Origin: a virus | Direction: 5' to 3' (one strand) | Length of the DNA stretch: 64,000 nucleotides | IMG/VR virus record: IMGVR_UViG_3300032053_000042 | Coordinates: 1 to 64,000 of that record | Part shown: piece after piece, positions 1-64,000 of the stretch | Position numbering within the stretch: position 1 is the first letter of the stretch | Layout: every line of letters begins with the position of its first letter | The notes under the pieces: model-generated | What the model saw: the letters and a program-made list of their open reading frames with translations, nothing else | Told to the model about the DNA's origin: nothing | Databases searched by the model: none | Translations under genes and position numbers: made by a program

Positions 1-11
1 ATGAAGATCAG

Positions 12-1271
12 ATGATTGTCGGGCTATTAATCCATGACGACCCAGGGCAACCCGATGACAACCCACACGTTATTGGCTGCCTGTATGGTGAAGCAGACGT
101 TACGGCAACAGGGATTGCTGGTACCAATTGTGAGACAACCCCGTTTACCGATAGCATCCCAGATACGTGCGGCGGCGTAAGTATTTGGGGTGTTCAGGGA
201 GTATTACAAGCGGCGAGCGAGGAACCTGTACCTGATGACGACGAGGTAATTGATGACCCTCCGATAACGCTTGATGGCATTGCCTACGTGCAGGCCGTAA
301 CGATGCCAGGATATACGGGCGATAACCGAGGTGAGCCGTTGCCAGGGGATCGTAGTGCCTGGAAGACCGACACTGAGCCACACGGCCAGTTACATGCTCA
401 GGATATAACCCATGAAGAGGCAAAGTACCACCTACCCTACTGGGATGCGGCTAACGGCGAAGCGCCGATATTCAATAGTACTACAGGATTCTGGGAACCT
501 GCCGACGTGCTCACGCCCGCTGAACACACAGCCATTGGCGACGGGGCGCCTCATCACGCGGAGGTGACGTTGGCGGCCAGTGCAGCAGTGTTGATGGATT
601 TGGCGGGGCAAGCCATATCACTGGATGTTCAAGATGCTAAAAAGGCGTTGATGGGGCCTGTATCTGGAGCGGCGGCAGCGCCTACATTCAGGGTGTTGGC
701 AAATACCGACCTGCCAGACCCGTTGGGCTTTGCATTGGCAGCAACACCACTCACCATCGCGGCGGGAGCAGTAACGGTTACTCGCAGTCTACATACTCTC
801 ACCAGTCAAGCTGGATTGGCCGATGACCTGGATACCATCACTGCGGCGGGTGATAGGACGTTACTTTTATTGCAGGCTACAGCAACCCATACCATCACCA
901 TCAAACACGGCACGGGGAACATATCGCTCAACGGCGCGGCGGACTTTGTATTGTCGGGGGAGAAGACATTATTATTGTTTTGGAATGGTACGAAGTGGGT
1001 TGACGTAGGAGCGGGTGGCGGAGCGCTAGCGGACCACGACCACTCAGGACATGCAGGGGATGGCGGAACATTTGACGCGGCCAATCTTACGAGTGGGGCG
1101 TCAACTGATGGACAGGTACTGACTTCGGATGGCGCAGGCGGCGCGGCATGGGAGACTCCCCCAACAGTCACGACCTATTGGGAACCCACGATTGCAGTTG
1201 TGGCTGCGGGCGACCCGCACCTTATATTCACAGGTGGCGATGATATTGTTATGGTCGAGGTGCCGATATGA
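12..1271 (+). CDS. Tail fibre / distal tail structural protein (may begin upstream of the window)
   Basis: Ala/Gly/Thr-rich with fibre-type segments (GQVLTSDGAGGAAWE, HTITIKHGTGNI); lies upstream of the lysis genes. Confidence 0.6.
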   Translation: MIVGLLIHDDPGQPDDNPHVIGCLYGEADVTATGIAGTNCETTPFTDSIPDTCGGVSIWGVQGVLQAASEEPVPDDDEVIDDPPITLDGIAYVQAVTMPGYTGDNRGEPLPGDRSAWKTDTEPHGQLHAQDITHEEAKYHLPYWDAANGEAPIFNSTTGFWEPADVLTPAEHTAIGDGAPHHAEVTLAASAAVLMDLAGQAISLDVQDAKKALMGPVSGAAAAPTFRVLANTDLPDPLGFALAATPLTIAAGAVTVTRSLHTLTSQAGLADDLDTITAAGDRTLLLLQATATHTITIKHGTGNISLNGAADFVLSGEKTLLLFWNGTKWVDVGAGGGALADHDHSGHAGDGGTFDAANLTSGASTDGQVLTSDGAGGAAWETPPTVTTYWEPTIAVVAAGDPHLIFTGGDDIVMVEVPI

Positions 1272-43124: not shown

Positions 43125-44075
43125 ATGCTAGACATCGCCACACTTAGGCAGCGTCAGAGCTTACCTTTGGAAGCAAAGGTCATGATGTCTCTACACAAGA
43201 TCAGGGAATGGTACGACCGCTGGCGTGGTCAAGTGTACGTTGCGTACAGCGGCGGTAAGGACAGCACAGTACTACTTCACCTAGTACGACAGTTTTACCC
43301 AGAAGTTCCTGCAGTGTTCAACAATACGGGCCTAGAGTACCCAGAAATCTTGGAACAGGTACGTGGCACAGAAAGCGTTGTATGGCTAAGGCCGAAGTAC
43401 TCATTTAAGGAGTGTTGCACCCGATGGGGTTTTCCAGCAGTAAGCAAAGAGGTATCTGACAAGGTACAACGTATCAGGAACACGAAGGACGAGCAGCTAA
43501 GGCAGCTATGGATGTACGGCAGGAATGACCAGGGAAGAACGACGATATTACGATTAAGCGATAAATGGCATTTTCTATTGCAGGCCCCGTTTAAGATAAG
43601 TCCTAATTGCTGTATACATCTAAAGAAGAATCCAGCTAAGCATTATGAGGGAGAAACCGGCTTGTGGCCGATGTTAGGTACACTAGCAGAGGAAAGCCTA
43701 GGACGCACAACGGAATACCTCCGCTTTGGTTGTAATAATTATACTAATAGCCGACCTAAAAGCACTCCGTTAGGCTTCTGGACAGAGCAGGATATACTAC
43801 AATATATTACACGGGAAGGGCTAAAGATTGCAGCAGTTTATGGCGACATAGTAGAGACCGATGGCCGTCTTCGTTGCATAGGCGAAGACAGAACTGGATG
43901 TATAGCGTGTCCCTTTGGTTGCCACGCTGGAGTACAAAACAGTTTTCAACGAATGGCCATAACTAAGCCGAAGTTACTTAACTGGATACTCGATGACCTA
44001 AGTATGCGACAAGTTCTTGACTTTACTGGAATTCCCTACACGGCACAGGATGTAGGATCTGAAGCTACATACTAG
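43125..44075 (+). CDS. PAPS-reductase-family PP-loop protein with Fe-S-type cysteines
   Basis: AYSGGKDS, NTGLEYPE, CC..LKK.P, P..FWTEQD, RTGC.AC.FG. Confidence 0.85.
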   Translation: MLDIATLRQRQSLPLEAKVMMSLHKIREWYDRWRGQVYVAYSGGKDSTVLLHLVRQFYPEVPAVFNNTGLEYPEILEQVRGTESVVWLRPKYSFKECCTRWGFPAVSKEVSDKVQRIRNTKDEQLRQLWMYGRNDQGRTTILRLSDKWHFLLQAPFKISPNCCIHLKKNPAKHYEGETGLWPMLGTLAEESLGRTTEYLRFGCNNYTNSRPKSTPLGFWTEQDILQYITREGLKIAAVYGDIVETDGRLRCIGEDRTGCIACPFGCHAGVQNSFQRMAITKPKLLNWILDDLSMRQVLDFTGIPYTAQDVGSEATY

Positions 44076-46152: not shown

Positions 46153-47715
46153 ATGCCTAAAGTATTCATAGCGAATCCTACACAAGAGCCTTTTCTCCTA
46201 AGCGATGCACGCTTTTTGGGCTTCTTCGGTGGAATTGGCAGTGGTAAGACCGCAGCAGGGGCGATAAAAGCAATACAAAAGTTACGAGACGGCGACGGAA
46301 TTATCGTAGGTCCGGACTACCCTCACTTTTGTAAATCGACCTGGGTGGAGGTTGCGAAATGGCTTCCATGGTCCCGGGTAACGAACAGAAATCTTCAGCA
46401 TCCGCACACCAGTGAGAAGGTACTGAAGATTCAGACGGCACAGGGTGAGCGTAGGATCTATTACGGAGGGATGGACGACGCCGCGGCCTGGGCTGGTCCT
46501 AGCGTCAATTTTGTTTGGGCCGATGAGTTTCGACGCAAGCCCACTCGCCAACATTTCGATGTGCTCGCTGGACGTATTCGCGTCGGGCATAACCCACAGT
46601 TATGGTTAACAACTACACCGAAAGCCACGTTACGTGGGCAACAGCACTGGCTGCACGAGGTTTTTGTCCAGAAGAAGTTCGATCCGGAAGTTCTAAAGGC
46701 TTTTGCAGGTGCCAATCAGAAGTTAGTTGAATACTTTACGGCTCCTACTAGCGAGAATGCTGAACACCTAGACTCATTGTACTTGGCGAGCCTGAAAGGT
46801 CTATACTCAGGGAAGTACGCAGACCAGGAGCTCGGGGGCGAATTTATTGACTTCGAAGGTCTAGTCTTTGCCAACTTCGACGAGGATAATGGGAACGTCA
46901 GCGTAGCTGCAGACTACACACCTGGAGTGGCTATCGAATGGGCGGTCGATAATGGTTTTACGGAGGGCCATCCTCTAGTAATCCTGTTAGCCCAAACGAT
47001 TCCACCGTTCGTTAACATATTCGCAGAGTACGTAGCAGTACGTGAACAACAGGAAGTGTGTATCGCTAAGGCTCTCCAGATGGGTTATCCACTCCCATCT
47101 GTAGCAAGAGTGGACTCGTCAGCACCAGATTTGATTCAACGCCTGTGGGATCGAGGTATTGAGACCGCACAGGGCTCGCACGACGTAGATGCAGGTATCT
47201 CTCATTTGCGATCGTTTATTCGGGATGGTAAGGACCAGGTCCATATTCGCTTTCATCCGCGTTGCACGTTCTCGATTGCAGAGATCCAAGCGTATTCGTA
47301 CCCGGATGCCGTGGAATCAGGAATTTCGATATCGTCGGACAAGGCTGCGAGGCCGATGAAGGAATCGGACAATGCAGCAGATGCACTTCGTTACTTGGTT
47401 TGGCCTAAGCAACTGGCGACGTTAGAGGCTTCGGCCGCCAGAGGCGATGTAATTCGTATACAAACTGGGAGGCCTAGTACACAGGGCCAGCAGCAACAAG
47501 TCCCGGCGCGTGGGTCTGTACCCTCGTTAACGCCGGTGACGTTGCAGGAGCAGGGCAGACCTGCGGCCACAGGGACGCAACCTGATCCTACTCCTACAGA
47601 ACCACTGCGAGCACCTGTGGAACGACGTACCGGCTGGTCAATTTTCGGCGGACCACGGAAGCCGAAGCCTCAGCGGATCAAACGCGACGCAAGTCGTCTT
47701 CCGCCCGGATGGTAA
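46153..47715 (+). CDS. terL: Terminase large subunit
   Basis: GGIGSGKT Walker A, WADE Walker B, TTTP motif III, nuclease D.G...DNAADALRY. Confidence 0.9.
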   Translation: MPKVFIANPTQEPFLLSDARFLGFFGGIGSGKTAAGAIKAIQKLRDGDGIIVGPDYPHFCKSTWVEVAKWLPWSRVTNRNLQHPHTSEKVLKIQTAQGERRIYYGGMDDAAAWAGPSVNFVWADEFRRKPTRQHFDVLAGRIRVGHNPQLWLTTTPKATLRGQQHWLHEVFVQKKFDPEVLKAFAGANQKLVEYFTAPTSENAEHLDSLYLASLKGLYSGKYADQELGGEFIDFEGLVFANFDEDNGNVSVAADYTPGVAIEWAVDNGFTEGHPLVILLAQTIPPFVNIFAEYVAVREQQEVCIAKALQMGYPLPSVARVDSSAPDLIQRLWDRGIETAQGSHDVDAGISHLRSFIRDGKDQVHIRFHPRCTFSIAEIQAYSYPDAVESGISISSDKAARPMKESDNAADALRYLVWPKQLATLEASAARGDVIRIQTGRPSTQGQQQQVPARGSVPSLTPVTLQEQGRPAATGTQPDPTPTEPLRAPVERRTGWSIFGGPRKPKPQRIKRDASRLPPGW

Positions 47716-51635: not shown

Positions 51636-53069
51636 ATGAAGCAATCAGTTAATGATCTGGTCCTTCAGCTGCAAGGGCTGTTGCAGCAGAAAGACGCCAC
51701 AGGTGTACCGAATGCACAGATGTTGCACGGGCCAGGCGGTCTTTTTAGTACGTTCGGGATCGACAACGTGGTCGTTAATGCACACATGACGCCACGAGGC
51801 ATCGAGGGTATGCTTCCTGTGCTGCCTTCCGTGTATCTTAATCCCCTCTTTACCTTTCTCACGGGCTTCGAAAGCGACGGCGGTAGCGAACCTAGCGGCC
51901 CTTGTGATACCTGCCCTGGCGGGGTGATCGAAACCTGTCACCAAACAGCTACTTTCGGCCGCGTCTGCCGTAGCAGCCAGGAGATCGAAGTTAACGAGAT
52001 CGTCAACATGATCAACCGTGGTGAGACGACCCCGTTGCGGCTCTTAGGTGAGGTACTAGGTCCTGGTGGTCTAGCCCCTAAAGACAACCTAGACGTTACC
52101 GGTTGGATTAACATGGTTCTCCAGGCACAGATGGTGCTGATCTCGATCTTGTTCCAGCGTGCTCTGCTCCCGATGGTCTGGACTGGTAATCCGGCGAACA
52201 ACACCCTCGGTGGCTACGCTGAGTTCCCAGGACTGGACATGCTGATCGGTACTGGTAAGATCGACGCTATCACAGGTGTAGCCTGCGGCGCCTTGGATAG
52301 CGACGTGAAGGACTTCGGCTATAATCCGATGTACGGCGCCGACCCGGATATCGTGCGGTACTTGAGCACGATGGAATGGTACCTGCGTAACAACGCACGG
52401 GGTATGGGTCTGGAGCCAGTTGACTGGGTGATCGCGATGAGGCCTGAGGCGTGGTTCGAATTGACCGAGATCTGGCCGATTCGATACAACACGGGTCTTG
52501 TCTCTCTAGCTATGCCGAACCAATCGTTTATCATGGTTAACGGACGCGACAATACGGCCGAGCGGGATCGTATGCGCGAGCAAATGCGTATACCGATCAA
52601 CGGTAACTGGTATCCAGTGATCGTCGACGACGGTATTGACGAGCAGACCCAAGCCGACAACGCTCTTATCCCACAGGGCGAGTTCGCTTCGAGCATCTAC
52701 TTTATCCCGTTACGTGCCCGCGGAATGACCACGGTCTATTGGGAGACCAAGGACTATCGTGGTATTCCAGGACAGCTCTCTGTTCTACAGCAAACGAACC
52801 CCTACTGGATCAGTGATGGTGGAAGGTACCTCTGGACTTTAGAAAAGCTCACATGGTGCTTTTTCTTGATGGGCAAGATTGAGCCCCGAATTATCTTACG
52901 TACACCTCAACTTGCAGGTCGCATCCAGAACGTACGCTACTCACCGTTACAACACCTAAGGTCACCTTTCCAGGACTCTGGATACTTCAAGAAGGGCGGC
53001 AACGAGAGCTACGACGCGCCGACCTATTACTCGGAGTGGAATGCCAGGAGCCCCAGCGAGCATAACTAG
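51636..53069 (+). CDS. Major capsid protein
   Basis: 477 aa after scaffold, strong SD; EF.GLD.LI motif typical of HK97-fold capsids. Confidence 0.7.
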   Translation: MKQSVNDLVLQLQGLLQQKDATGVPNAQMLHGPGGLFSTFGIDNVVVNAHMTPRGIEGMLPVLPSVYLNPLFTFLTGFESDGGSEPSGPCDTCPGGVIETCHQTATFGRVCRSSQEIEVNEIVNMINRGETTPLRLLGEVLGPGGLAPKDNLDVTGWINMVLQAQMVLISILFQRALLPMVWTGNPANNTLGGYAEFPGLDMLIGTGKIDAITGVACGALDSDVKDFGYNPMYGADPDIVRYLSTMEWYLRNNARGMGLEPVDWVIAMRPEAWFELTEIWPIRYNTGLVSLAMPNQSFIMVNGRDNTAERDRMREQMRIPINGNWYPVIVDDGIDEQTQADNALIPQGEFASSIYFIPLRARGMTTVYWETKDYRGIPGQLSVLQQTNPYWISDGGRYLWTLEKLTWCFFLMGKIEPRIILRTPQLAGRIQNVRYSPLQHLRSPFQDSGYFKKGGNESYDAPTYYSEWNARSPSEHN

Positions 53070-53099: not shown

Positions 53100-53801
53100 A
53101 TGACTGAAATAACATGGCCTACAGTAGTAATACTAATAGTGACCTACGATAGGCCACAAGAAATCCGAGCAACGATCCTGGGACTGATACACCATCTGTC
53201 TTACAGAGGTCAGCTCCTGTACGCAGTCTGTGACGACGGATCACCTGAAGGATATTTACAAGGTATCCACGAAGCCTTTCCGGACTTACAGATTGCGTTC
53301 TCGACGACGAAGAGACAGGGTTGGGGCGCCAATGTCAACGTAGGTATACGGACTCTAGTTCATAAGAATTATTGCTTCCTTACTGAAGACGATCAAGTAG
53401 CACTCACGAAGATTGACCTTACTAGTGGTGTGGCTCTACTAGAAGCGCTTCCAGATCTTGGCGCGATCAGATATGATGGAGTTGCAGGTCATGCACTAAA
53501 CCTCGAGTTACGAGAGGCCGAGACCGCTATAGGTAGAATGAACTACCTGAGGATTCTCAAGTCCTCGCCGCACCTGAACGTGTACTCAAATCGACCTCAC
53601 CTGGCAGCTCCGCGCTTCCATGAGGTATACGGTACCTATTTAGTCGGAAAGACGTTAGGCCAAACAGAAGAAAGCTTTGCCCATAAAGTGAGGGACCAAG
53701 AGGGACCTGACATAGGCTGCTTAACCGATGGTATTGCACTAGCCTTCGACCATATCGGGAAGAGCCGGCAAAACACCACGGAGGACGTACACCATGACTG
53801 A
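53100..53801 (+). CDS. GT2 glycosyltransferase
   Basis: ILIVTYDR, DDGS, GWGANVN.G, TEDD. Confidence 0.85.
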   Translation: MTEITWPTVVILIVTYDRPQEIRATILGLIHHLSYRGQLLYAVCDDGSPEGYLQGIHEAFPDLQIAFSTTKRQGWGANVNVGIRTLVHKNYCFLTEDDQVALTKIDLTSGVALLEALPDLGAIRYDGVAGHALNLELREAETAIGRMNYLRILKSSPHLNVYSNRPHLAAPRFHEVYGTYLVGKTLGQTEESFAHKVRDQEGPDIGCLTDGIALAFDHIGKSRQNTTEDVHHD

Positions 53802-54396
53802 CGTCGTACCTTGGGACGAGGGAAATGTTGCGAAGGCTATTGACACGTACTGGCTTACAAGCCCAATGGAAATAGAGTGGCGACGCCTTCTTATCGAGGA
53901 TATGAAGCAAACGGTATTTACAGAACCAAGACCTTATCCAATCCTAGAGGTAGGTTGTGGTAGTGGTCTAATCTACGAGGCGATGGAGCTAGCAGGCTTA
54001 ACGACTCCAGAGCTGTACGTGGGTGGAGATGTCAGTAAGTCAATGTTGGAGCTTGCTCGGTCTAGGTACGATGCTACCTTTCAAGAGCTCGACGGGCTTA
54101 AGCTACCATTCGAGGACCGCTCACAGGAGAACGTGATTTGTGTTAGCGTACTACAGCACCTACCAGACTACCAACAGGCGTTACTTGAGCTATTAAGGGT
54201 TACGCGTAAGCGTCTGTACATAGCCCTGTGGATGCGTGACAGCGCTGGGGATGATATCCAGTTCGGTGGAAAGTTCTTTAACAACACATATTCGCTACGG
54301 CTTTTTAGTAAGCTAACGCAGAGTAAGCAGCCTACCATACGACACCTATACCTCTCGAACTATTCTGTGCTCTTTGTACAGAAGGAGCGAAAGTGA
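53794..54396 (+). CDS. Class I SAM-dependent methyltransferase
   Basis: ILEVGCGSG, G.DVS.SMLE.AR, LPF.D, VLQH. Confidence 0.9.
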   Translation: MTDVVPWDEGNVAKAIDTYWLTSPMEIEWRRLLIEDMKQTVFTEPRPYPILEVGCGSGLIYEAMELAGLTTPELYVGGDVSKSMLELARSRYDATFQELDGLKLPFEDRSQENVICVSVLQHLPDYQQALLELLRVTRKRLYIALWMRDSAGDDIQFGGKFFNNTYSLRLFSKLTQSKQPTIRHLYLSNYSVLFVQKERK

Positions 54397-54935
54397 ACTA
54401 CGCGGTGGGTGGGAGAGTGCGATTACGACCAGTAGAGATTAAAGACGATGAGTACATCGTGCGGTGGCGGAATACCGACCGCTTAGCTTTTTTCGATCAG
54501 ACTGTAGTCACACCTGACACCCACCGTCTTTTCGTGGAGAATCGCAAGTCTCACGATCTCGTATGGATGGTCGAAGCAGGTTCGTGGACTGTGGGAATGG
54601 TTAGTCTGACAGTCGACGTAGTCAATGCTACCGCCGAGTTTGGTAGACTGTACATCGCTCAGGGCTTTCGTAGGCAGCGACTGGGTACAGAGGCTTCTTA
54701 CACCGCTCTCGCCTATGGCTTCGAGCTACTACGTCTACAATCGATCTGGCTGCTAGCCCGTTCGGACAACAAGGAGGTTCGGCGGATGTACGATAACATG
54801 GGATGGTGTGCTGAGCTAGCAAAGCTCGACGTGATTCGTATGACGTACAAGAATACGTACTGGGCTCTAGAGGGTCGTAATCGTTTTATGAGGGACTTTG
54901 GAGTAAACCTTGATCCGCATCTTGACACTATTTAA
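54393..54935 (+). CDS. GNAT N-acetyltransferase (RimJ/PseH-like)
   Basis: LRP....D...IVRWRN, AEFGRL, R..LG, DN....MY..MG. Confidence 0.85.
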   Translation: MNYAVGGRVRLRPVEIKDDEYIVRWRNTDRLAFFDQTVVTPDTHRLFVENRKSHDLVWMVEAGSWTVGMVSLTVDVVNATAEFGRLYIAQGFRRQRLGTEASYTALAYGFELLRLQSIWLLARSDNKEVRRMYDNMGWCAELAKLDVIRMTYKNTYWALEGRNRFMRDFGVNLDPHLDTI

Positions 54936-55554
54936 TAAAGCTCAGCTCGTACTAGAGGCCATAGCTAGCGTGGAGGCACAGACTCGACGCGATTATATCC
55001 ACTTTGCAAGACCAGATACTTATCGTGCGCGCGATGGCAGATATCCACCGGCAGTCTATTATAATGAGATGGCAAGAATAGCTCCGATGGAAGATTACAT
55101 TAGTTGGTTATCGGATGATGATCTTTTGTTCCCTAATTACGTAGCTGATCTAGCAGGACATCTAGACGCGCATCCTGAGATCGATTGTGTATATGGTGGT
55201 AGCAAGCACGTTCTACACGAGCCACCACAGGAGGATAGACTGATACGAAACCTTCCGCAGCAGTGGCCGTTTCCATTGTTCAACGCCGAGCTTTCACCCT
55301 TTTGTCAGATCGACGGTGGACAGTTTATGATTCGACGGTCGGGCCTGGAGAAGATTCCGTATCCGTGGTATCCTGAGGACGCTGCAAGTGCGAGTGGATG
55401 TGATGCAATCTTTATGCGTAAGATCTCGCAGTACTTTCCGATGTATCCGATACCGGTCTTCGTTATGACTAATCGGGCGACTTCTGCTAGTTGCCACACT
55501 GTGGCAGTTCGTGGACATCTAGAGAAGGGCGTTGGATGGAAACCTTATGGGTGA
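54910..55554 (+). CDS. GT2 glycosyltransferase
   Basis: AIASV.AQT, YISWLSDDD. Confidence 0.8.
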   Translation: MIRILTLFNKAQLVLEAIASVEAQTRRDYIHFARPDTYRARDGRYPPAVYYNEMARIAPMEDYISWLSDDDLLFPNYVADLAGHLDAHPEIDCVYGGSKHVLHEPPQEDRLIRNLPQQWPFPLFNAELSPFCQIDGGQFMIRRSGLEKIPYPWYPEDAASASGCDAIFMRKISQYFPMYPIPVFVMTNRATSASCHTVAVRGHLEKGVGWKPYG

Positions 55555-56209
55555 TGTAACGGCTGTAATAGTCAATCTGAATACGGTTGAGCTTACAAAG
55601 ATAGCAGTAGAGAGCTTAGTTCGAGCCTATCCAGATATAGCTCTTATCTTGATAGACAACGGCTCAGTAGATGGCACGACGCAGTACCTACAAGAGCATT
55701 GCTCAGATAGAGAGAAGTCTAGAGCACTTTTCTTGCATCACAACATTGGACATGGACCTGCCTTGCATCTAGCTACGAACATGATTGGTACACCGTATTT
55801 CTTTACGATGGATTCTGACTGTGAGGTTCGTGCACCTGGCTTTCTAGAGTCTATGATACAGTACTTCGATGACGGGTCAGTGTACGCTGTAGGGGACCTA
55901 CTATACGTTCGATCAGAGGATGCAGAGGATCCTTCGAGAGAGTTTAGAAGCTGGCCTACGTACGTTCCATACATATCACCCCACGCTGGTTTATATCGAA
56001 TGAGCTTTTACAGGACAACCTATCCGTTCATGCACCATGGAGCTCCACTACTGTGGAACATGATAGGAGCACGATCACGCGGCTGGATGTGTATAAGCTT
56101 TCCGATACAGGAGTACGTAGCTCACCTAAGAGCCGGTACACGTAAATTATACGACGCTAGCCAACGAGAGTGGAATATTGTAGCTGGACGACTTCCGGTA
56201 GGATGGTAA
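55547..56209 (+). CDS. GT2 glycosyltransferase
   Basis: DNGSVDGT, NIGHGPAL, MDSDC. Confidence 0.85.
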   Translation: MGDVTAVIVNLNTVELTKIAVESLVRAYPDIALILIDNGSVDGTTQYLQEHCSDREKSRALFLHHNIGHGPALHLATNMIGTPYFFTMDSDCEVRAPGFLESMIQYFDDGSVYAVGDLLYVRSEDAEDPSREFRSWPTYVPYISPHAGLYRMSFYRTTYPFMHHGAPLLWNMIGARSRGWMCISFPIQEYVAHLRAGTRKLYDASQREWNIVAGRLPVGW

Positions 56210-56211
56210 TA

Positions 56212-56820
56212 ATGTTCAATCACGATGCAGTCTTTCACTCAACTTATCGAGGAGTACCGATAGTTAAGCTTCCGCTAGACCTGTGGGTCTACCAGGAACT
56301 AATGTCGAGACTAGGAAATGTTCGCTGCGTCGTGGAGATTGGAACCTTTCAAGGCGGTAGTGCACTAGCTCTATACGATATGATGTGTGCGATCAATCAG
56401 TGCGAGGATAATCTAGTTGTTACGATTGACGTTAAGGCAGATGTCCATAGTGATCTTGTCCTACACAACCCACACATTATTCGCTTAGTAGGTAATGCTG
56501 CCTACCCCAGCACAGTAGTGAAGACATTCGAAGAGTGCGCAGCTTACGCCGACGAGGTTATGGTTATAGATGATGGTAGTCATTTACGCGACGAGGTACT
56601 AGCCGCCTTATGCCAGTATCGTGTATTAGTAGCTGTGGGTGGATACTATATCGTCGAGGATACGATCTGTCATCATGGTATGGAGGTAGGACCTATTCCT
56701 GGTCCCTACGAGGCAGTTCAAGAGTTTCTACGTACCAACGACGACTTTGTAGTCGACGCCACCTGTGAGAAGTTTGGACTGACCTATAATCCGTCAGGGT
56801 TCCTGAGGAGGGTTCGATGA
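56212..56820 (+). CDS. CmcI-family (rhamnosyl-type) O-methyltransferase
   Basis: G.P..K.P.DLW.YQE, EIGT..GGSAL, DDGSH, Y.IVEDT, NPSGFL. Confidence 0.88.
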   Translation: MFNHDAVFHSTYRGVPIVKLPLDLWVYQELMSRLGNVRCVVEIGTFQGGSALALYDMMCAINQCEDNLVVTIDVKADVHSDLVLHNPHIIRLVGNAAYPSTVVKTFEECAAYADEVMVIDDGSHLRDEVLAALCQYRVLVAVGGYYIVEDTICHHGMEVGPIPGPYEAVQEFLRTNDDFVVDATCEKFGLTYNPSGFLRRVR

Positions 56821-57878
56821 TTCCACTGCTCCGACCGTCTTGTACCGATGCTGAGATTGAGGCAGTTACGAAGGTAATGCGCTCTGGTTGGTGGGGTATG
56901 GGAAAGGTCTGCGAAGAGGTTGAGGCTTTCCTAAGTAACTACTACGACTACGCGCACTGTGTAACGACCAATAGTGCCACAGCGGCGTTACATTTAGCCT
57001 TACTGTCACACAACATAGGTCCAGGAGACGAGGTTATCGTTCCGGCCTTAACCTTTATCAGTACTGCTCTAGCTGTAAGCTACGTTGGAGCCACACCGGT
57101 GTTCGCAGATATTGATCCTAGGACCTTATGTATTGATATGGCTGATGTCGAGCGTAGAATAACTCGACATACCAAGGCCATTATTGCGGTGGACTATGCA
57201 GGATATCCAGCGCTGGTCGAGAGACCAGAATATCCATTTCCGACTATTCAGGACGCGGCACACTCCTGTGGAGGAGTAGGTTACGGTGATGATATTTGCT
57301 TGAGCTTTCATCCAGTTAAGAACATAGCTACCGGTGATGGTGGAGCGATTATAACTAACGGCGAAGTGCGAGCTAATCGACTTCGAGCTTTACGTTGGTG
57401 CGGCATCGATAAAAGTACTTGGGAACGTACTACTACTCGGTACGGTTGGGATTATGATATCAACGAGATGGGATTTAAGTGTCACTGGAATGACATACAG
57501 GCGGCCATTGGGCTGGTTCAGCTACACAGAATGCCAGAGCTTCTAGCTCGTCGGCGAGCAATTGCTAAGATGTACGATGAGGGTTTGTTGGGTCTTTGTC
57601 AGTTACCGTTAGACCATCCGAAGCATACGTATCATTTGTATCCGATCAGGGTAGACGCAAGAAAGAGGAATCGAACTATTCAGCACCTTCTGTCGAAGGG
57701 GATCAGCGCTGGAGTGCATTATAAGGCTCTTACGGAATATCCGATGTACCACCAAGCCACCCCACCCGTTACGGATTATACGTGGCATCGACTAATAAGC
57801 TTACCGATCTTCTTCGATATGACGGACGAGCAGGTTAATCTAGTTATCACGACTCTAAGGGAGGTCCTTGATGGCTGA
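56817..57878 (+). CDS. DegT/DnrJ/EryC1/StrS sugar aminotransferase
   Basis: NSATAALHLAL, GDEVIVP..TF, QDAAHS, SFHPVKN..TGDGG. Confidence 0.93.
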   Translation: MIPLLRPSCTDAEIEAVTKVMRSGWWGMGKVCEEVEAFLSNYYDYAHCVTTNSATAALHLALLSHNIGPGDEVIVPALTFISTALAVSYVGATPVFADIDPRTLCIDMADVERRITRHTKAIIAVDYAGYPALVERPEYPFPTIQDAAHSCGGVGYGDDICLSFHPVKNIATGDGGAIITNGEVRANRLRALRWCGIDKSTWERTTTRYGWDYDINEMGFKCHWNDIQAAIGLVQLHRMPELLARRRAIAKMYDEGLLGLCQLPLDHPKHTYHLYPIRVDARKRNRTIQHLLSKGISAGVHYKALTEYPMYHQATPPVTDYTWHRLISLPIFFDMTDEQVNLVITTLREVLDG

Positions 57879-59097
57879 CATAGATACCCTGAGGGAACGT
57901 ATTCCTTGGCTATTTGGGCTTGGAGGCGAGCTTCTACTCATCGCCGATAAGCCTGGACGTAACTCCCTAACCGCTTCCTTAGCGAAAGAGGGCTATCGAG
58001 TTACACTTCTGGAGCCGAGACGTAACTTTGCTCGGGGAGCGGAGCGTAGTAAGGCGTTTACTAGGATTCTACAGGGGCTTCCTTACGATATTGCCGCTAT
58101 AGCATCTATGCAAGGCCTGCAGTGGGATATAGTATTATGGTACCATCGAATGGATGTAGTCTCGTATGAGGAGTTTGTGCGTAGCCTATCGCAGCTCCAG
58201 CTCGTTACTAGAAAGGTAGTCGTGGTAGGAGATCCACACCATACACGTTTCGCTAAAGATCTAGGATTGCACGACTTTCATCTCGTAGGTGATCTAGGTA
58301 TATGGTATGGAGGACAGTGGCCTTTACCAAGGCCGGCTGGGGTGGTGTCTGAGGTGGTACCTGAGGTAGCACCTGTGGTACAAACTCCCGAGCTTGTTCC
58401 ATCCCTTGCAGAACTAGGTCAGGTTACGGCGATTGTGGTTGGCTTTAACACGAAGGCTTTGACCAGGAACGCAGTAGCCACGCTGAGGCAGGCCTATCCT
58501 AAGTTGTCTGTAATTCTGTTGGATAACGCGTCGTCTGACGGATCTACACCAGATGTGGCACGACTAGCTACAAGTTATAACGTACAACCTGTACTAAACG
58601 GCACGAATATCGGCCACGGGCCCGCATTAGACCAGGGTATTCGGATGTGCAATACGCCCTACATTCTACTTTTGGACTCTGATTGTGTCGTGCATAAAGC
58701 AGGCTTTATCGAGGCTATGCTAGCTCGATTCGCGGAGGATTCTAAGTTGTATGCGGTGGGCTGGTTGCGCACTGTAGATCGCTATTCCGGGGTACCTTTG
58801 GAGTGGCACGTAGTACAACCGTCTTCAGCTCAATTCTGCCAATACGTGCACCCCAGCTGTGCCCTAATTGACCGAGCGAAGTACTTAGGTCTCCCATCGG
58901 CCTTTCATCACGGAGCTCCTATGCTACAGAATATGCGAGGAGCGGTGGATGCGGGCTATACCTTGGAAGACTTTCCTGTTGGCGAGTTCGTTGAACATCT
59001 AGTCGCAGGTACGCGAAGGATCTATCAGGGAAAATGGAACCCCCTAACGAACGAGGCTCGTGGTACGTGGCGAGCTACTGATAAGCTACCGATCTAG
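57871..59097 (+). CDS. Degenerate methyltransferase-like N-domain plus GT2 domain
   Basis: C-terminal DNASSDG, NIGHGPAL, LDSDC; close paralogue of 55547..56209. Confidence 0.75.
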   Translation: MADIDTLRERIPWLFGLGGELLLIADKPGRNSLTASLAKEGYRVTLLEPRRNFARGAERSKAFTRILQGLPYDIAAIASMQGLQWDIVLWYHRMDVVSYEEFVRSLSQLQLVTRKVVVVGDPHHTRFAKDLGLHDFHLVGDLGIWYGGQWPLPRPAGVVSEVVPEVAPVVQTPELVPSLAELGQVTAIVVGFNTKALTRNAVATLRQAYPKLSVILLDNASSDGSTPDVARLATSYNVQPVLNGTNIGHGPALDQGIRMCNTPYILLLDSDCVVHKAGFIEAMLARFAEDSKLYAVGWLRTVDRYSGVPLEWHVVQPSSAQFCQYVHPSCALIDRAKYLGLPSAFHHGAPMLQNMRGAVDAGYTLEDFPVGEFVEHLVAGTRRIYQGKWNPLTNEARGTWRATDKLPI

Positions 59098-59139
59098 ATC
59101 TTCTGGAGGGCTGCTCAAAACTGGAGAAGAGGAGGATTT

Positions 59140-61779
59140 ATGAGTTTGAAGGTCTTTATGCATCCTGAGCCAGATACGAAGCCTGAGGCCATAGGTAACG
59201 GAATACAAATGGTCGTCCAGGCGATGTATAAGCATTTACCTACTATGGACATTGAGCTGGTGTCGTCACTAGACCATGCCGACCTTTTCGCGTCACACGT
59301 AGACTCGCCCTTTAGAGTGCCAGACGTACTACACACACATGGACTCTATCCCACAGGTGAGATGGAGATGGGCGGGTGGGCTTTTGAAGTTAATGCCAGG
59401 GTTATCACGAACGCTAGACAGGCTCTGGCCGTAACGGCGCCTTCAACGTTCGTGGCGGATATTTTTGCTCGTAATCTAGGCTTTAGACCAAAGGTAATAG
59501 GTCACGGAATCGAGCCAGGCGAATGGCCTGAGCCTTCTCGACGTAACGAGCTGACAGTTCTATTCAATAAGAACCGCGCAGGGGACGTATGCTCAGCTGA
59601 ACCTGTTGAGCGTCTAGCACAGCTACGCCCGAACGTAAAGTTCATGTCGACGTTCGGTACTAAGCGTCGTAACCTTGAAATCACAGGTGCAATGCCACAT
59701 CCTGCAATGAAAGAGTTGTTATACAAGTGCGGGATATATTATGCGCCAACCAAGGAGACCTACGGTATCGGCATTCTAGAGGCCATGGCTGCGGGAATGC
59801 CTGTACTAACGTGGGACTGGGGCAACAATCCTGAGTTAGTACGACATATGGTCGATGGATACATCGTCGAGCCCTACGACTATACTGGTACCGCTAAAGG
59901 CCTTGACTGGTGTATTGAGCACTTCAGCGAGCTTACGGGGCATGCTCGAGTACAAGCCTTAACACACTCTTGGGAGGGACCGATAGCTTCATACGCTGCC
60001 CTTTATCGACAAGCGTATGCTCGCAAGCTTGCTAAGGGCCCGTTAGTATCAGTTGTGATTCCTTGTTACAATTATGGTAAGTACGTAGCCGAAGCCATAC
60101 AGTCCGTGAAAGATCAGACCCTTACAGATTGGGAGTGCATCGTAGTAGACGATGGCTCAACTGACGACTCTTTTGAAGTAGCCAAGAAGGCCACGCAGGA
60201 CGATCCTAGGTTCACAGTAATAACGCAGTTGAATGCAAAGGTAGCAAATACACGCAATCGTGGGGCCACTCGTGCTCAAGGTAAGTACCTGTGCTTCCTG
60301 GACGCCGACGACTATATGCTACCAAGGTGCTTAGAGATCCTAACAGCCGCCTTACTTAAGGACCGAACCGCTGGTATTGCCTATGGTAGGCTCAAGGAGC
60401 TCACAGATAAGGGACTAGAGGCTGGCGTCTCAAGCTGGCCTAACGACTTTAACATGACGCAGCAGCTCGCTCAACGGAATCAAGTACCGTCGTGCTGCTT
60501 GATTGAGACTAGAGCGTTCTTTCGAGCTGGTGGCTTTCGTTCTCACACTATACCAGCAGAGGATGCCGAGCTGTGGACTAGAATTCCTCTTCTAGGCTTT
60601 AACGTGATCAAGGCTACTGACGAGGCTACGTATGTTTATCGAAAGCATGGTACAAACGCTACACTAGTTCATCCAGGGATGCCTCCATGGACGGCTTGGC
60701 TTCCTGCAGCTCATAAGGGAGTTCAGCCTATTGCTAGTGTGGCTCCAGCTGCGAAGCAATCGCACCCCGTGTTCAACTACGACAGACCTTTAGTAAGCTT
60801 CGTCACACCTGTGGGACCTGGACACGAGGCTCTTGTAGGTGATGCAATTGAGTCGGTTTGCGCACAGATAGACCCTAGGTGGGAGCATATCATTATCGAC
60901 GACACAGAGGGAGGTAGTCTACAGGAGTATGGCGTTATTCCATATGCTATGAGATATCCTCACCTTAAGTGGCTACGTAGTTCAAAGCTTCACAATGTTA
61001 GTGCGGCACGTAACGCTGGTGCTAGGATGGCTAGAGGTAGGTTCCTGTGCTTCCTAGACGCTGACGACATGTTATTCAAGGAGTTCGTACGCGATACTCT
61101 ACCAATGACTATGGAGCGAGCTAAGCCTCTAGTTTACACCGACTGGATTGAGCTTCCTGAGGGTACAGTACACCAGGCGGAGAACTGGGATCCAAAGGCG
61201 CTTCAGCAACGATCTATAATGGCTGTAACCTTTCTGCACGAGAAGAGCGCCTTTACGCTCGTAGGTGGGTTCGACGAGTCCTTGGACATGTGGGAGGACT
61301 GGGATTACACAGTACGGCTTTCCTTCCTAGGCTATCAAGGTATACACGTACCCAAGCCTTTGTTCAGCTATAGCTACAATACTGGGAAGAGGCGAGAGGA
61401 AAGTCTGGAGAAGGCCAAGCAAGTAGTTAAGAGCGACGCTCGAACACCTGTGGAGACTCAGGTACCAGCACAAGTTATAGCACCACCGCCTGTGGAGGAT
61501 CCTCGATTCGCTATACATAAGGCGATACGACCACCTGCGGTTCCTCGGGCACAGGTGCAAGAGAACATGACGATTATCCAGCCTAGGTTGACTCGGCCTG
61601 GGCAAGCTAATAACGTAGGAGTACGGTATATTGGAACAGTAGCAGACACTAGGCTCTATCGAGCTCCGAGTGGGAGGAGATATCGATTCGGTTCCGGTGT
61701 ACACCAGGTACAGATGGTAATGGCCGAGGATGTTGCGCATTTTAAGGCTATGTCTGGCCTATTCGAACTTGTATCATAG
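59140..61779 (+). CDS. Tri-domain glycosyltransferase GT4-GT2-GT2 plus small C-terminal domain
   Basis: ETYGIGILEAMAAG.PV (GT4); VSVVIPCYN..DDGSTD..FLDADD; second IIDD..ARNAG..FLDADD..EDWD. Confidence 0.9.
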   Translation: MSLKVFMHPEPDTKPEAIGNGIQMVVQAMYKHLPTMDIELVSSLDHADLFASHVDSPFRVPDVLHTHGLYPTGEMEMGGWAFEVNARVITNARQALAVTAPSTFVADIFARNLGFRPKVIGHGIEPGEWPEPSRRNELTVLFNKNRAGDVCSAEPVERLAQLRPNVKFMSTFGTKRRNLEITGAMPHPAMKELLYKCGIYYAPTKETYGIGILEAMAAGMPVLTWDWGNNPELVRHMVDGYIVEPYDYTGTAKGLDWCIEHFSELTGHARVQALTHSWEGPIASYAALYRQAYARKLAKGPLVSVVIPCYNYGKYVAEAIQSVKDQTLTDWECIVVDDGSTDDSFEVAKKATQDDPRFTVITQLNAKVANTRNRGATRAQGKYLCFLDADDYMLPRCLEILTAALLKDRTAGIAYGRLKELTDKGLEAGVSSWPNDFNMTQQLAQRNQVPSCCLIETRAFFRAGGFRSHTIPAEDAELWTRIPLLGFNVIKATDEATYVYRKHGTNATLVHPGMPPWTAWLPAAHKGVQPIASVAPAAKQSHPVFNYDRPLVSFVTPVGPGHEALVGDAIESVCAQIDPRWEHIIIDDTEGGSLQEYGVIPYAMRYPHLKWLRSSKLHNVSAARNAGARMARGRFLCFLDADDMLFKEFVRDTLPMTMERAKPLVYTDWIELPEGTVHQAENWDPKALQQRSIMAVTFLHEKSAFTLVGGFDESLDMWEDWDYTVRLSFLGYQGIHVPKPLFSYSYNTGKRREESLEKAKQVVKSDARTPVETQVPAQVIAPPPVEDPRFAIHKAIRPPAVPRAQVQENMTIIQPRLTRPGQANNVGVRYIGTVADTRLYRAPSGRRYRFGSGVHQVQMVMAEDVAHFKAMSGLFELVS

Positions 61780-61788: not shown

Positions 61789-62061
61789 ATGCCGTGTCGC
61801 AATTGCCGTCAGAAGGCACAAGCTAAGTTCTATGCAGGAGTGAAAATCAAACGGCTCGTCAACGAGCCTAACACGGATCCCGCTTCCGAGGATGAGTTCG
61901 TTGTGGAGTTTCTTGGATCTGGAACCAACGAAGTGAAGTACCGTGGACCAACTGGTAAAGCATATCGCTTTGCTGCTGGTTCGAGCGCTGTGCAGAAGAT
62001 ATGTGAGACCGATGCGCTCTTCTTTAATCAGCTGTCCATGTTTAGGGTGCATGCGGCATAA
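61789..62061 (+). CDS. Small protein (CxxC N-terminus) homologous to the C-terminal domain of the GT4-GT2-GT2 protein
   Basis: V.F.G......YRGPTGK.YRF.......I...D...F....F. Confidence 0.6.
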   Translation: MPCRNCRQKAQAKFYAGVKIKRLVNEPNTDPASEDEFVVEFLGSGTNEVKYRGPTGKAYRFAAGSSAVQKICETDALFFNQLSMFRVHAA

Positions 62062-62073: not shown

Positions 62074-63258
62074 ATGGGAATCGCAAGCACTGAAACTCTG
62101 TTGAGTCTGGACCAGTACGCGGAAATAATGGGCATCCCGCCCTCACATTTTAACCAAGCTGTCTGCGTCGATTATCCTGATGTCGACAGCTGCCATAGCA
62201 TATGGTACCAGTATAGTTGGATGAGCCCGGGCAAAGCTTCAAGGGAGGAGCTAGCTCGAGCAATTGCACAGGCTGAGACCATGATTGCTCAGCTAATGGG
62301 TGTGTGGCCTGCACCTAAGTGGCTTACAGAGGACACGCAGCCCTATCCACGGCAGCGAATGCACCAGAATAGCTTCGTAGAGTACTATCCTGCAATGTCC
62401 ACAGGGCGACGTAAGACTGTTGGAACACGATGGACTCATTTCATCGCAGGCGGACGTCGAGCAGTGGCTTCTATCGCAGCAGGTGTGACTGTAACTTATC
62501 CAGCTGCACCACATCTAGGTAGCGGTACGGCCTCGATATCAGTCGCTTATGTAGGTACTGCAACGGCTAACGAGATTGCAGTCTTTTCCTCTACGAACAC
62601 GTCGCCTAATAAGCAGATCAGGCATCTTGAGGTCACTATAGCTAGTGGAGTACTTACGATTCGTGGACGATCAGCACAGTTTCTCTTGCCAACTCTGTGG
62701 GAGGATGAAGCTCTTATCGACGGTGACGACCTTACACAGTACCTAACGACCGTGAACATCTATAGGGTGTACAACAGTGCAATCGATAACGCTGAAGCTC
62801 CTGTCGAGTTTGGCTGGCAAGCAGCCGACGCCATCGACTTACTCAAGGGCTATGGTACCTTGCAGGTCTGGGATGCTCGAGTAGGTATCGTATCACCTAT
62901 ACCTGCAGTGTGGAACGCTACTACGCTCGAGTGGGATGCAAAAGTGTTCTGTCCTGGAGATGAGCCGCATACAATGCAGCTGTTTTACAAAGCTGGTTGG
63001 ACTCTTGATCCTCAAGGCCGAATGTCGGAGCCTGTGGCGCGAGCAGTTGCAGCGTTAGCCACAGCACTCTTATCGGCTCCGGTGTGCGGATGTAGTCAGG
63101 CCGAGAAAATGTCCATATGGTGGCAAAGTTATCCCAGTAAGGACGAGCCGACGAGTTATCGGCAGATAGAGTGTCCGTGGGGTGCCCGACGTGGTGCTTA
63201 CGAGGCTTATAGAGTACTAAGCACGTTTTGGGGAAGTGCGGGAAGTATTGGTCTTTAG
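62074..63258 (+). CDS. Putative head-tail adaptor
   Basis: RE.LA.AI..AE..I...G helical N-terminus, Y.AG motif; position after the head cluster. Confidence 0.5.
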   Translation: MGIASTETLLSLDQYAEIMGIPPSHFNQAVCVDYPDVDSCHSIWYQYSWMSPGKASREELARAIAQAETMIAQLMGVWPAPKWLTEDTQPYPRQRMHQNSFVEYYPAMSTGRRKTVGTRWTHFIAGGRRAVASIAAGVTVTYPAAPHLGSGTASISVAYVGTATANEIAVFSSTNTSPNKQIRHLEVTIASGVLTIRGRSAQFLLPTLWEDEALIDGDDLTQYLTTVNIYRVYNSAIDNAEAPVEFGWQAADAIDLLKGYGTLQVWDARVGIVSPIPAVWNATTLEWDAKVFCPGDEPHTMQLFYKAGWTLDPQGRMSEPVARAVAALATALLSAPVCGCSQAEKMSIWWQSYPSKDEPTSYRQIECPWGARRGAYEAYRVLSTFWGSAGSIGL

Positions 63259-63293: not shown

Positions 63294-64000
63294 ATGGATC
63301 AACAGACGGGCTTCGGGCGCGTTTTTATACAGGAAAACGGCGCAAATCCAGGTAACCCCTATTCCTATCAAGGATGCGGGAAGCTTGGAGGCTTTACTGA
63401 ACCTCAGGGAGGGATCACAGCAATTAAATGTCCTTCCGCAAGTCAGTACGATGAGTTTGAAGTTGTAGGCAGTGTAAGAGGCGAAGCGGGTCTACCTACC
63501 ACCTCGCTGATTATTCGCCTTCAACCTCGACTCCGCATGTTACGTATGAAGTGTGCATTTGACATTCAGGCCCACTACGGCGAATGCACCAGTCCATCAG
63601 ATTTCCACAAGTGGACTCAGATCGTCGCTTTTGAGCAAGCACGATTTACTCAGAAGAGTAGTGGCGAGCTGACAGCTATGGAAGAGACGGAACGCGCCAC
63701 TGTCCTAGTCACAGGGGACATCACGGCCCAGAGGATCTGGTACGTCGAAACCATGACTCTGGCCGAGGTTGCACCGACAGAAGTAACCGACGAGGTCGTT
63801 GGTGTAGCCATGGATCCCCGTGTGATGTGCGGCACCTGTGGTGTTCCATCCGATGGGACACAACGGATGTTCGCAGTTGTGAAATCTCCGACAGCGACGT
63901 CCCCGGGTCTACCAGCAGAACTACTGGTATCTGAGGACGGCGGAGGTACTTGGACTCAGTACGTTATCAATACGCTTGGTCCTAGCGATGACCCATCGGG
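63294..64000 (+). CDS. Probable tail (tube) protein, 3' truncated by the window end
   Basis: AGGAG SD; open frame MDQQTGFGRVFIQ... to the end; Asp-box SEDGGGTW. Confidence 0.5.
   Translation, partial: MDQQTGFGRVFIQENGANPGNPYSYQGCGKLGGFTEPQGGITAIKCPSASQYDEFEVVGSVRGEAGLPTTSLIIRLQPRLRMLRMKCAFDIQAHYGECTSPSDFHKWTQIVAFEQARFTQKSSGELTAMEETERATVLVTGDITAQRIWYVETMTLAEVAPTEVTDEVVGVAMDPRVMCGTCGVPSDGTQRMFAVVKSPTATSPGLPAELLVSEDGGGTWTQYVINTLGPSDDPS

Follow-up and report, generated by a model that had tools for sequence, protein, structure and literature searches.

A glycan-biosynthesis cassette in a hypervariable slot between the capsid and neck genes of an uncultured siphovirus-type phage: a candidate virion-glycosylation locus

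The 64,000-nt stretch of DNA analysed here (the window) comprises bases 1-64000 of the 76,123-bp IMG/VR virus record IMGVR_UViG_3300032053_000042, whose completeness is estimated at 91% by CheckV. The source virus is an uncultured tailed phage with a siphovirus-type tail module, and its genome contains, immediately after the gene for the major capsid protein, an 8.7-kb block of sugar-related genes (53100-61779) that is referred to below as the cassette. A preliminary description, made from the letters of the window alone, had proposed that this block builds a methylated amino-sugar glycan on the virion from a host keto-sugar. Here, we have analysed the cassette by profile searches, structure prediction and comparative genomics of related viral contigs, and we discuss which acceptor its enzymes may serve.

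Genes of the cassette and their neighbours

The block is completely filled by nine open reading frames (ORFs; g1-g9) on the plus strand (Table 1). Their successive junctions measure +30, -8, -4, -26, -23, -40, -4, -11 and +42 nt, with most of them being overlaps of 4-40 nt, and the genes abut structural genes at the borders of the block, which agrees with the earlier view of nine tightly coupled late genes. By Pfam, the nine products carry seven glycosyltransferase (GT) domains (six of family GT2 and one of GT4), the number given in the preliminary description, with the GT2 assignment of g4 being marginal; the GT-A signatures ...SVEAQT... and DDD are present in the g4 translation. The DegT-type aminotransferase, PseH-like GNAT, class I methyltransferase and CmcI-type methyltransferase that had been named alongside them were all recovered by Pfam or NCBIfam at the level of the family. 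At the finer level of equivalogs the scores are too low: the top NCBIfam match of g3 is PseH (43.8 bits, cut-off 93.1), whereas g7 matches PseC with 265.8 bits (cut-off 423.5) and ArnB with 262.2 bits, both of which are sub-equivalog, and g6 reaches 95.1 bits against the rhamnosyl O-methyltransferase model, which is again under the cut-off. The nearest solved structure of g7 is ArnB (214 bits), compared with 111 bits for Helicobacter pylori PseC.

The last gene of the cassette, g9, codes for a triple glycosyltransferase, in which a GT4 stretch is followed by two GT2 stretches, a linker and a C-terminal small domain (CTD). Its catalytic motifs (DxD/DDD, EX7E and EDW) show no or almost no variation among up to 36 homologues, and both GT2 and GT1/GT4 Pfam domains are present in all 36 homologues scanned. 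Both glutamates of the EX7E motif in the GT4 domain (E206 and E214) are invariant in an alignment of eight homologues; among the 36, E206 is invariant and E214 nearly so. The same larger set has D338, D388 and D390 invariant and D391 nearly invariant in the second domain, whose nearest solved structure is the chondroitin synthase K4CP (2z86, 98.7 bits), and D640, A641, D642, D643, E719 and D720 invariant in the third domain, which matches a PglI-type GT (9jma) over residues 616-740. One relative has g9 in split form (L097:3681-7528), with a separate 318-aa GT4 gene, a 241-aa gene and a 732-aa gene for two GT2 domains, the C-terminal domain and a helix-hairpin-helix (HhH) domain.

The composition of the block is that of the phage. 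The ratio of observed to expected CTAG is 1.72 in the block and 1.26 elsewhere in the genome; the tetranucleotide correlation between the block and the rest of the genome (r 0.82) falls within the range of most other chunks of equal size (0.77-0.87); and codon usage in the block correlates with that of the structural genes at r 0.83. The block had been described as CTAG-rich and written in the style of the phage, and these values bear this out. It had also been said to lack a membrane GT, and indeed no membrane segment was found in any cassette protein, the maximal Kyte-Doolittle 19-mer value being at most 1.47 for every GT.

Table 1. Features of the cassette, its flanking genes and the recoding candidates in relatives. 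Coordinates without a locus prefix refer to the window; aa, amino acids; SAM, S-adenosylmethionine; PLP, pyridoxal phosphate.
Feature	Coordinates	Strand	Description
Major capsid protein	51636..53069	+	477 aa, HK97 fold (predicted); directly upstream of the cassette
g1	53100-53801	+	GT2 glycosyltransferase, 233 aa; Pfam PF00535, 29.8 bits
g2	53794-54396	+	Class I SAM methyltransferase, 200 aa; Pfam Methyltransf_11, 58.8 bits
g3	54393-54935	+	GNAT N-acetyltransferase, PseH-like, 180 aa; Pfam Acetyltransf_3, 49.5 bits
g4	54910-55554	+	GT-A/GT2-like, 214 aa; PF00535, 22.5 bits (marginal; cut-off 23.3)
g5	55532-56209	+	GT2 glycosyltransferase, 225 aa; PF00535, 66.8 bits
g6	56170-56820	+	CmcI/rhamnosyl O-methyltransferase family, 216 aa; PF04989 (RMNT_CmcI), 115.7 bits
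g7	56817-57878	+	DegT-family PLP sugar 4-aminotransferase, 353 aa; PF01041, 302.5 bits
g8	57868-59097	+	409 aa; N-terminal 185 aa without assigned family, then GT2 (PF00535, 62.4 bits, residues 188-303)
g9, whole gene	59140-61779	+	GT4, two GT2 stretches, linker and C-terminal small domain
g9, domain 1	59140..60024	+	GT4 (GT-B fold); Pfam Glyco_transf_4 residues 28-126, Glycos_transf_1 residues 177-260
g9, domain 2	60049..60645	+	GT2 (GT-A fold); PF00535 residues 304-453
g9, domain 3	60787..61404	+	Second GT2 (GT-A fold); second PF00535 stretch
g9, linker and CTD	61405..61776 (core about 61600-61776)	+	Pro-rich linker and C-terminal small domain; conserved at the ends of g9 homologues
s90	61789..62061	+	90 aa, stand-alone CTD paralogue; N-terminal CxxC (MPCRNC)
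p394	62074..63258	+	Conserved lineage protein, always after g9; syntenic in 36 loci
p492	63294..64000, continuing to genome position 64772 (L015:2295-3773)	+	Probable major tail protein; C-terminal BNR/Ycf48-like beta-propeller
In-frame TGA/hairpin, relative 1	L016:21092-21150		In g9 of a relative
In-frame TGA/hairpin, relative 2	L017:16129-16187		In g9 of a relative
In-frame TGA/hairpin, relative 3	L019:18878-18936		In g9 of a relative
In-frame TGA/hairpin, relative 4	L024:12248-12306		In g9 of a relative
In-frame TGA/hairpin, relative 5	L028:15282-15340		In g9 of a relative

The initial PHROGs and Pfam scan of the flanking structural genes gave no match, and the protein encoded upstream of the cassette has no Pfam, PHROG or PDB match by sequence or profile. 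Its AlphaFold2 model, when built from an alignment of 51 sequences, has a predicted local distance difference test (pLDDT) score of 80.8 (36.5 with an alignment of seven), and a Foldseek search of this model against the PDB returned 286 matches with E<=1e-3, led by SU10, SPO1 and HK97, with a Foldseek probability of 1.00 for the capsid proteins of SU10, SPO1, HK97 and lambda. An Atlas lead agrees with this identity, and the model thus identifies the predicted product as an HK97-fold major capsid protein, so that the block follows the major capsid gene as previously stated. The capsid family is large, with 1976 homologues at E<=1e-5 in a metagenome protein collection, two close ones (P0002 and P0003) being 86% and 78% identical. 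Four capsid cysteines (C90, C101, C217 and C408) are invariant or nearly so across 51 homologues, which hints at disulfide or metal sites.

On the other side, the placement ahead of head-tail genes agrees with the gene order and with weak leads on the proteins encoded there. The first of them, p394, is a probable head-completion or connector protein: it has no PDB match by sequence or profile, and two weak leads point this way, one from the ESM Atlas to a head completion protein (HCP, 0.90) and one from structural comparison to a head-tail connector (TM 0.62 by target). The second, p492, is probably the tail tube protein, because it is placed before the tape-measure and Dit genes: it precedes p200 and a 1166-aa protein in the tape-measure position and then, past the end of the window, a 300-aa protein (SPP1_Dit, Sipho_tail) and a 377-aa protein (Sipho_Gp37), which together represent the siphovirus tail module. 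It ends in a beta-propeller of about 300 aa (Ycf48, E 1.7e-15, by profile against the PDB; Pfam PSII_BNR and BNR), which is unusual on a tail tube and may be a glycan-binding or adhesion domain.

With regard to the remainder of the genome, the large terminase gene (46153-47715, Pfam Terminase_6N) precedes the capsid region and the minus strand carries replication genes. No close relative of the record was found among GenBank phages by megablast, and the best terminase matches in a tblastn search of GenBank have at most 27% identity. Signs of lysogeny were absent from the parts of the genome examined. A QueD gene (108.7 bits) confirms a 7-deazaguanine DNA modification pathway, and these DNA-modification genes are located about 36 kb away from the cassette. 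The phage depolymerase C-terminal beta-sandwich domain PF25692 occurs in two proteins, one at each end of the record (window 3-1271 and L002:9670-11805), and the record break falls within the tail-fibre region; in view of these depolymerase domains, the host probably bears a polysaccharide layer. Just ahead of the terminase region, an AT-rich stretch (GC content 0.39-0.40 at 40-44 kb) contains a gene of the PAPS-reductase/PP-loop type (43125-44075; PF01507, 58.7 bits).

The capsid-g9 slot across the lineage

A synteny survey, which the preliminary description had suggested as a check, was carried out with the window proteins by tblastn. A total of 159 loci of the capsid family were confirmed in IMG/VR, 80 of which were compared, and synteny was counted over those related viral contigs (n=56) in which 9 kb or more of sequence follows the capsid gene. 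A g9 homologue is within reach in 47 of these 56 contigs, so the position of the cassette is shared. Eight others have sugar genes, with g9 apparently lying further on or being cut at the end of the locus, which leaves a single locus without g9 (L033). The gene order is constant (capsid, variable cassette, g9, p394, p492 and p200), and g9 stays near the capsid gene even where the capsid proteins have diverged to approximately 33-40% identity. The persistence of this neighbourhood over such deep divergence argues for a functional link between g9 and head assembly.

What lies between the two genes is far less constant. The gap between the capsid gene and g9 ranges from 14 nt (in L078, with L038 and L048 being similar) to 8835 nt, with a median of 4.0 kb and a value of 6.1 kb in the phage studied here. 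The triple glycosyltransferase is the conserved core of the cassette and the tailoring genes are its variable part. After g9, the most widely kept cassette gene is g1, homologues of which were detected by tblastn in the slot of 29 of 66 related loci; homologues of g8 are present in five loci (L017, L020, L021, L023 and L029), and the aminotransferase g7 has homologues of 59-60% identity, namely in L010 (60%) and L099 (59%), which also carry relatives of g2 (34% identity, L010) and g3 (37% identity, L099). The content of the slot differs from one phage to another: across the 66 loci, PseB/PglF-type 4,6-dehydratases are found in the slot of 27, usually directly after the capsid gene, other short-chain dehydrogenases/reductases (SDRs) in 27, DegT aminotransferases in 16 and GHMP kinases in 13. 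C-, O- and FkbM-type methyltransferases, hexapeptide and GNAT acyltransferases, sulfotransferases together with adenosine phosphosulfate (APS) kinase, UDP-Glc dehydrogenase, a GFO/IDH/MocA oxidoreductase and a radical SAM enzyme complete the repertoire. The sulfotransferases amount to three cluster representatives, with L053:14426-15949 being among the slot genes of note, which suggests that the glycans of some relatives may be sulfated.

From the 90 slot-cluster representatives of 68 related loci, 61 slot families were derived, 36 of which have a single member and stand outside the list of the 25 commonest. Among these 25, no phosphoglycosyl transferase, flippase, polymerase, ABC transporter or oligosaccharyltransferase was found, and no slot ORF (n=344) has more than three hydrophobic segments. 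Judged by its gene content, the slot appears to vary like a surface-antigen locus. The cassette is thus not special to this phage and represents one allele of a hypervariable slot that is kept across a large uncultured lineage.

The CTD of g9 deserves separate consideration. Immediately after g9, the phage encodes a small protein, s90, whose ATG is preceded at 5 nt by GGAGG and which is a paralogue of the CTD (31% identity over 55 aa, E 7e-10 by BLASTP; E 6.8e-9 with a local hidden Markov model (HMM) of g9 C-termini). In most relatives, the CTD is fused to g9. It is split off in L088, where a 217-aa CTD protein directly follows a g9 without a tail, and duplicated both here and in L020, which has two extra small copies beside g9; in L033, the only relative lacking g9, a 186-aa stand-alone CTD protein (E 1.4e-21, local HMM) occupies the slot between the capsid and neck genes. 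These fused, split, duplicated and solitary forms indicate that the CTD serves a purpose of its own among the head genes. No Pfam match was obtained for s90 or the L033 protein, and a PDB sequence search with the CTD profile also gave no match.

The domain represents a large family that is so far without annotation. Its 66-position core profile detects 1012 representatives at E<=1e-3 and 138 at E<=1e-10 among 1.84 billion cluster representatives. A typical member (P0122-P0270) is a free protein of 75-275 aa that combines CxxC, the domain and a Pro-rich linker, often with an HhH or HeH-like tail, and other members have one, two or three GT domains ahead of the CTD. With two of the stand-alone proteins as queries, no related loci were found, and an alignment-based scan gave g9 homologues only. 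Such architectures suggest a mobile module that has repeatedly brought glycosyltransferases to some target, and the CTD may be considered a candidate targeting module with a docking role. In most homologues, the linker between the last GT domain and the CTD has a high content of Pro, Ser, Thr and Ala; that of this phage is Pro-rich with little Ser/Thr.

A further peculiarity concerns g9 of five relatives (L016, L017, L019, L024/L025 and L028), each of which has a single in-frame TGA in the context RRG-TGA-GG that is absent from the window. The TGA occupies the position at which other homologues have the first Cys of the CxxC/CxC motif ahead of the CTD, which continues in frame, and a hairpin with a conserved CGUG loop begins approximately 20 nt downstream in each case. 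In a hand-registered alignment, six of the seven stem pairs change on both sides and 82.9% of cells are paired, compared with 50.8% in shuffled sequences (0 of 500 shuffles reach the observed value) and 20-55% in slid controls; the hairpin windows were picked from single-sequence folds, which biases this covariation count. No SECIS family of Rfam was detected at the site, and automatic alignment of the region yielded no consensus fold. Recoding of TGA throughout these genomes was rejected, as their other genes are open under table 11. The TGA and hairpin together look like a candidate bacterial-type selenocysteine insertion element (SECIS) or, alternatively, a case of programmed readthrough.

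Possible acceptors of the glycan

Taken together, these features incline us, with some reserve, towards the view that the cassette is the allele of this phage at a lineage-wide hypervariable virion-glycosylation locus between the capsid and neck/tail genes. The phage encodes GTs with intact catalytic motifs, and their genes lie in the structural block, on the same strand and with overlapping junctions, at the place where most relatives have theirs. The view is favoured by the fixed capsid-neck position across deep divergence and by late co-translation with the structural genes, by the solubility of the enzymes, the lack of carrier and export functions and the antigen-locus-like variation of the slot, as well as by the persistence of the CTD alone in the head block and the precedent of mycobacteriophages. 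Gene position and synteny point to the capsid as the most likely acceptor. The proposal of a methylated amino-sugar virion glycan made by the phage itself therefore stands in part: it best fits the soluble enzymes of a late phage operon, and the acceptor is suggested by position and synteny.

In such a system, nine soluble enzymes would be made late in infection alongside the structural proteins. The DegT enzyme g7 would aminate a UDP-4-keto sugar, obtained from the host or from a gene outside the record, and g3 would N-acetylate the product. The triple enzyme g9, held at its target by the CTD, of which s90 would be a free copy, might transfer core sugars in the cytoplasm straight to a virion protein, with no lipid carrier being involved; the capsid protein would be the most likely acceptor and the tail tube protein a possible second one. 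The glycan might then be extended by g1, g4, g5 and g8 and methylated by g2 and g6. We infer the order of transfer, the sugar and the acceptor alike from the genes.

Several observations weigh against this view. The slot is also a hot spot at which selfish and moron genes insert, among them HNH endonucleases (4), N6/N4 and C5 DNA methylases (5), an endonuclease VII and a TnpB-like gene, and position alone is thus weaker evidence of function. The capsid family lacks a Ser/Thr-rich tail, its C-terminus is conserved and no acceptor site was identified in it. In cells, lipid-linked acceptors are also used by GT2 and GT4 enzymes that have no membrane segment. Finally, an HHH_5 domain comes after the CTD in three of the 36 g9 homologues, as it does in many forms that stand alone or have a single GT2 domain, and HhH domains are usually tied to DNA binding.

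The origin of the sugar is a related question. No SDR dehydratase or epimerase was found in a six-frame search of the whole 76,123-bp record with PF02719 and PF01370, in which control genomes were positive; the earlier statement that the window has no NDP-sugar dehydratase thus extends to the whole record, which has no PseB-type UDP-GlcNAc 4,6-dehydratase for the corresponding step of the pseudaminic acid pathway. The cassette of L010, in contrast, has the order PseB-like dehydratase, methyltransferase, DegT and GNAT, and the complete 87.7-kb genome L099 has GNAT, DegT and g9 plus an SDR just across the contig ends, i.e., upstream in the slot. A third relative, L023, whose record is only 53% complete, has a cassette like the present one (GT2, DegT, GNAT, methyltransferases, GTs, a g8-like gene and g9) in a fully covered slot without a dehydratase. 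As the dehydratase encoded by many relatives is missing here, an outside source of the keto-sugar is needed. This much of the earlier proposal holds; that the host provides the sugar is the simplest reading and a plausible one, based on an absence from a 91%-complete record in a lineage whose members often carry a dehydratase or another SDR.

Among the alternatives, glycosylation of the phage DNA, with g9 being brought to DNA by the CTD (and by HhH in some relatives) and the product serving as a protective base glycan, appears rather unlikely. The HhH domains described above and the DNA methylases in the slots of some relatives would suit this role, and one homologue matches a TET-associated GT family below threshold, but g9 of this phage has no HhH domain by Pfam. 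Phage GTs are indeed able to place diverse glycans on 5-hydroxymethylcytosine (5hmC; 10.1101/2023.12.21.572611); here, however, no acceptor-making enzyme (hydroxymethylase or TET/5mYOX) linked to a GT was found. A ThyA-like hydroxymethylase (PF00303) was absent from this genome and from the records of five relatives (four of them 93-100% complete), and TET (PF12851) was likewise not found in these genomes, the search of the relatives being one without a positive control. The phage does modify its DNA through the 7-deazaguanine pathway, but the same five relatives have neither QueD nor TGT/DpdA and yet show g9 (three of them) or cassette genes (two), which argues that the GT genes occur independently of the deazaguanine genes. 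Moreover, known DNA GT genes adjoin base-modifying genes (10.1101/2023.12.21.572611), whereas the cassette lies between the capsid and neck genes, far from the modification genes of this phage.

An equally doubtful alternative is that the enzymes remodel an envelope glycan of the host (lipopolysaccharide, capsule, S-layer or flagellar) on a host carrier or protein, which could block superinfection or free the progeny from receptors. Such a role would accord with the enzyme families, given that bacterial surface-glycan loci typically encode GT2, GT4 and PseC/PseH-like enzymes and that undecaprenyl-linked acceptors are commonly served by soluble GTs, and dependence on a host-made keto-sugar would imply a related glycan in the host. 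Neither the cassette nor the commonest slot families of the 68 loci, however, include the initiating transferase, flippase, polymerase, transporter or ligase of an undecaprenyl-dependent surface-glycan locus, and with late genes that are co-translated with structural genes, any export would be confined to a short interval before lysis. The phage GTs known for seroconversion are membrane proteins encoded at other genomic positions, which also speaks against an envelope target. In addition, remodelling of the envelope fails to explain why g9 is fixed at the capsid-neck junction or why the CTD survives alone there.

A third possibility, to which we give slightly less weight still, is that the glycan is built on the CTD protein itself, with the g9 linker or s90 acting as a self-priming carrier, and yields a proteoglycan that decorates the head or is released at lysis. 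The first GT2 domain of g9 most resembles polymerising bifunctional synthases (chondroitin and heparosan synthase), and both this phage and L020 have further copies of the CTD in small separate genes beside g9. The linker composition of most homologues would provide acceptor residues, but that of the present g9 is poor in Ser/Thr, and L033 keeps the CTD without any GT, which argues against a primary role of this domain as a GT substrate. The idea overlaps with virion glycosylation in that its product would still reach the virion. Lastly, a misassembled or recently captured host polysaccharide locus without a phage role, to which only the enzyme families (as in bacterial glycan loci) point, was rejected and is scarcely conceivable, since the composition is phage-like, the genes overlap each other and abut structural genes, and dozens of independent viral contigs, several of which have direct terminal repeats and 100% estimated completeness, show this architecture as well.

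A broader proposal follows from glycosylation of the virion, and we offer it only tentatively: a large uncultured lineage of 65-90-kb siphovirus-type phages may possess a serotype-like glycan locus welded to the capsid gene, whose triple GT is anchored on the particle during assembly by a small domain that had not been described before (with 1012 representatives, usually free and often with HhH), and in one clade selenocysteine may replace the first Cys of the CxxC/CxC motif in the hinge of this enzyme. If this is true, virion glycan coats would be widespread and diversifying in environmental phages rather than an actinophage curiosity; those of the present lineage would consist of tailored amino, acetamido and methyl sugars (apparently also sulfated ones in relatives), and the docking module could be reusable. 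Such a fast-evolving virion trait could influence how well phages adsorb to particles and biofilms, how they are grazed, how stable they are and whether host defences recognise them, and many of the sugar genes regarded as 'auxiliary metabolic' in metagenomes may serve the virion rather than host metabolism. The capsid-g9-neck architecture provides a simple marker for finding such systems.

Comparison with known systems

In the literature searched, no description was found of this lineage or of such cassettes beside the capsid genes of tailed phages, and the published glycosylated phage particles, as far as the available parts of the sources go, are those of some actinophages with few GTs. In the mycobacteriophages Che8, Corndog and Myrna, phage GTs glycosylate subunits of both the capsid and the tail tube (Freeman et al. 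2023, Cell Host Microbe, as described in PMC12619734, PMC12363180 and PMC11256854). The likeness lies in soluble, phage-encoded GTs in a tailed phage; according to these sources, the glycans of mycobacteriophages are attached in the cytoplasm, whereas the present system is known from its genes alone. The mycobacteriophage systems have few GTs, and no sugar-nucleotide tailoring is described in the portions of the literature that were available. Here, seven GT domains are accompanied by an aminotransferase, an N-acetyltransferase and two methyltransferases, a conserved three-domain GT carries a docking-type domain, and the slot varies within a large lineage that does not consist of actinophages. 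The preliminary description had considered the system more elaborate than those known in tailed phages; this is upheld to the extent that the accessible text on published cases reports few GTs and no tailoring, but the elaboration is not peculiar to this phage.

With respect to the origin of the sugar, g7 and g3 match the PseC and PseH steps among the pathways for pseudaminic acid (PseB/PseC/PseH), bacillosamine (PglF/PglE/PglD) and Ara4N (ArnB), and relatives of the phage add a Polysacc_synt_2 dehydratase (PseB/PglF-type) directly after the capsid gene. Compared with the pseudaminic acid pathway, however, this phage has no dehydratase and no PseG, PseI or PseF, its scores are sub-equivalog and ArnB is nearer, so that the sugar cannot be named. 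K4CP (2z86) and heparosan synthase resemble g9 in having several GT domains in one chain, to which g9 adds a GT4 domain and a small non-catalytic tail. Hypermodification of 5hmC in phage DNA shares with the cassette the use of GT-A and GT-B enzymes, diverse and sometimes multi-sugar glycans and a variable gene content (10.1101/2023.12.21.572611), but the genes with which 5hmC GTs cluster (those for a C5-methyltransferase and 5mYOX, or for ThyS-type hydroxymethylases) were found neither here nor in the relatives checked.

Parallels in enzyme content come from the autonomous glycosylation of giant viruses, namely the glycan of the chlorovirus PBCV-1 capsid protein Vp54 and the amino-sugar pathways of Mimivirus (PMC7019647, PMC4691112). 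These viruses likewise have cytoplasmic viral GTs, including multi-domain ones, together with sugar aminotransferases, acetyltransferases and methyltransferases, and their glycan is placed on the major capsid protein independently of host membrane machinery. They differ in being large eukaryotic DNA viruses with double jelly-roll capsids and without a homologous gene context, whereas the cassette belongs to a 76-kb siphovirus-type phage with an HK97 capsid, in which the first pathway step is missing. By analogy, the system described here would work in the manner of mycobacteriophage virion glycosylation, and its complement of enzymes resembles that used for capsid glycosylation in chloroviruses and Mimivirus.

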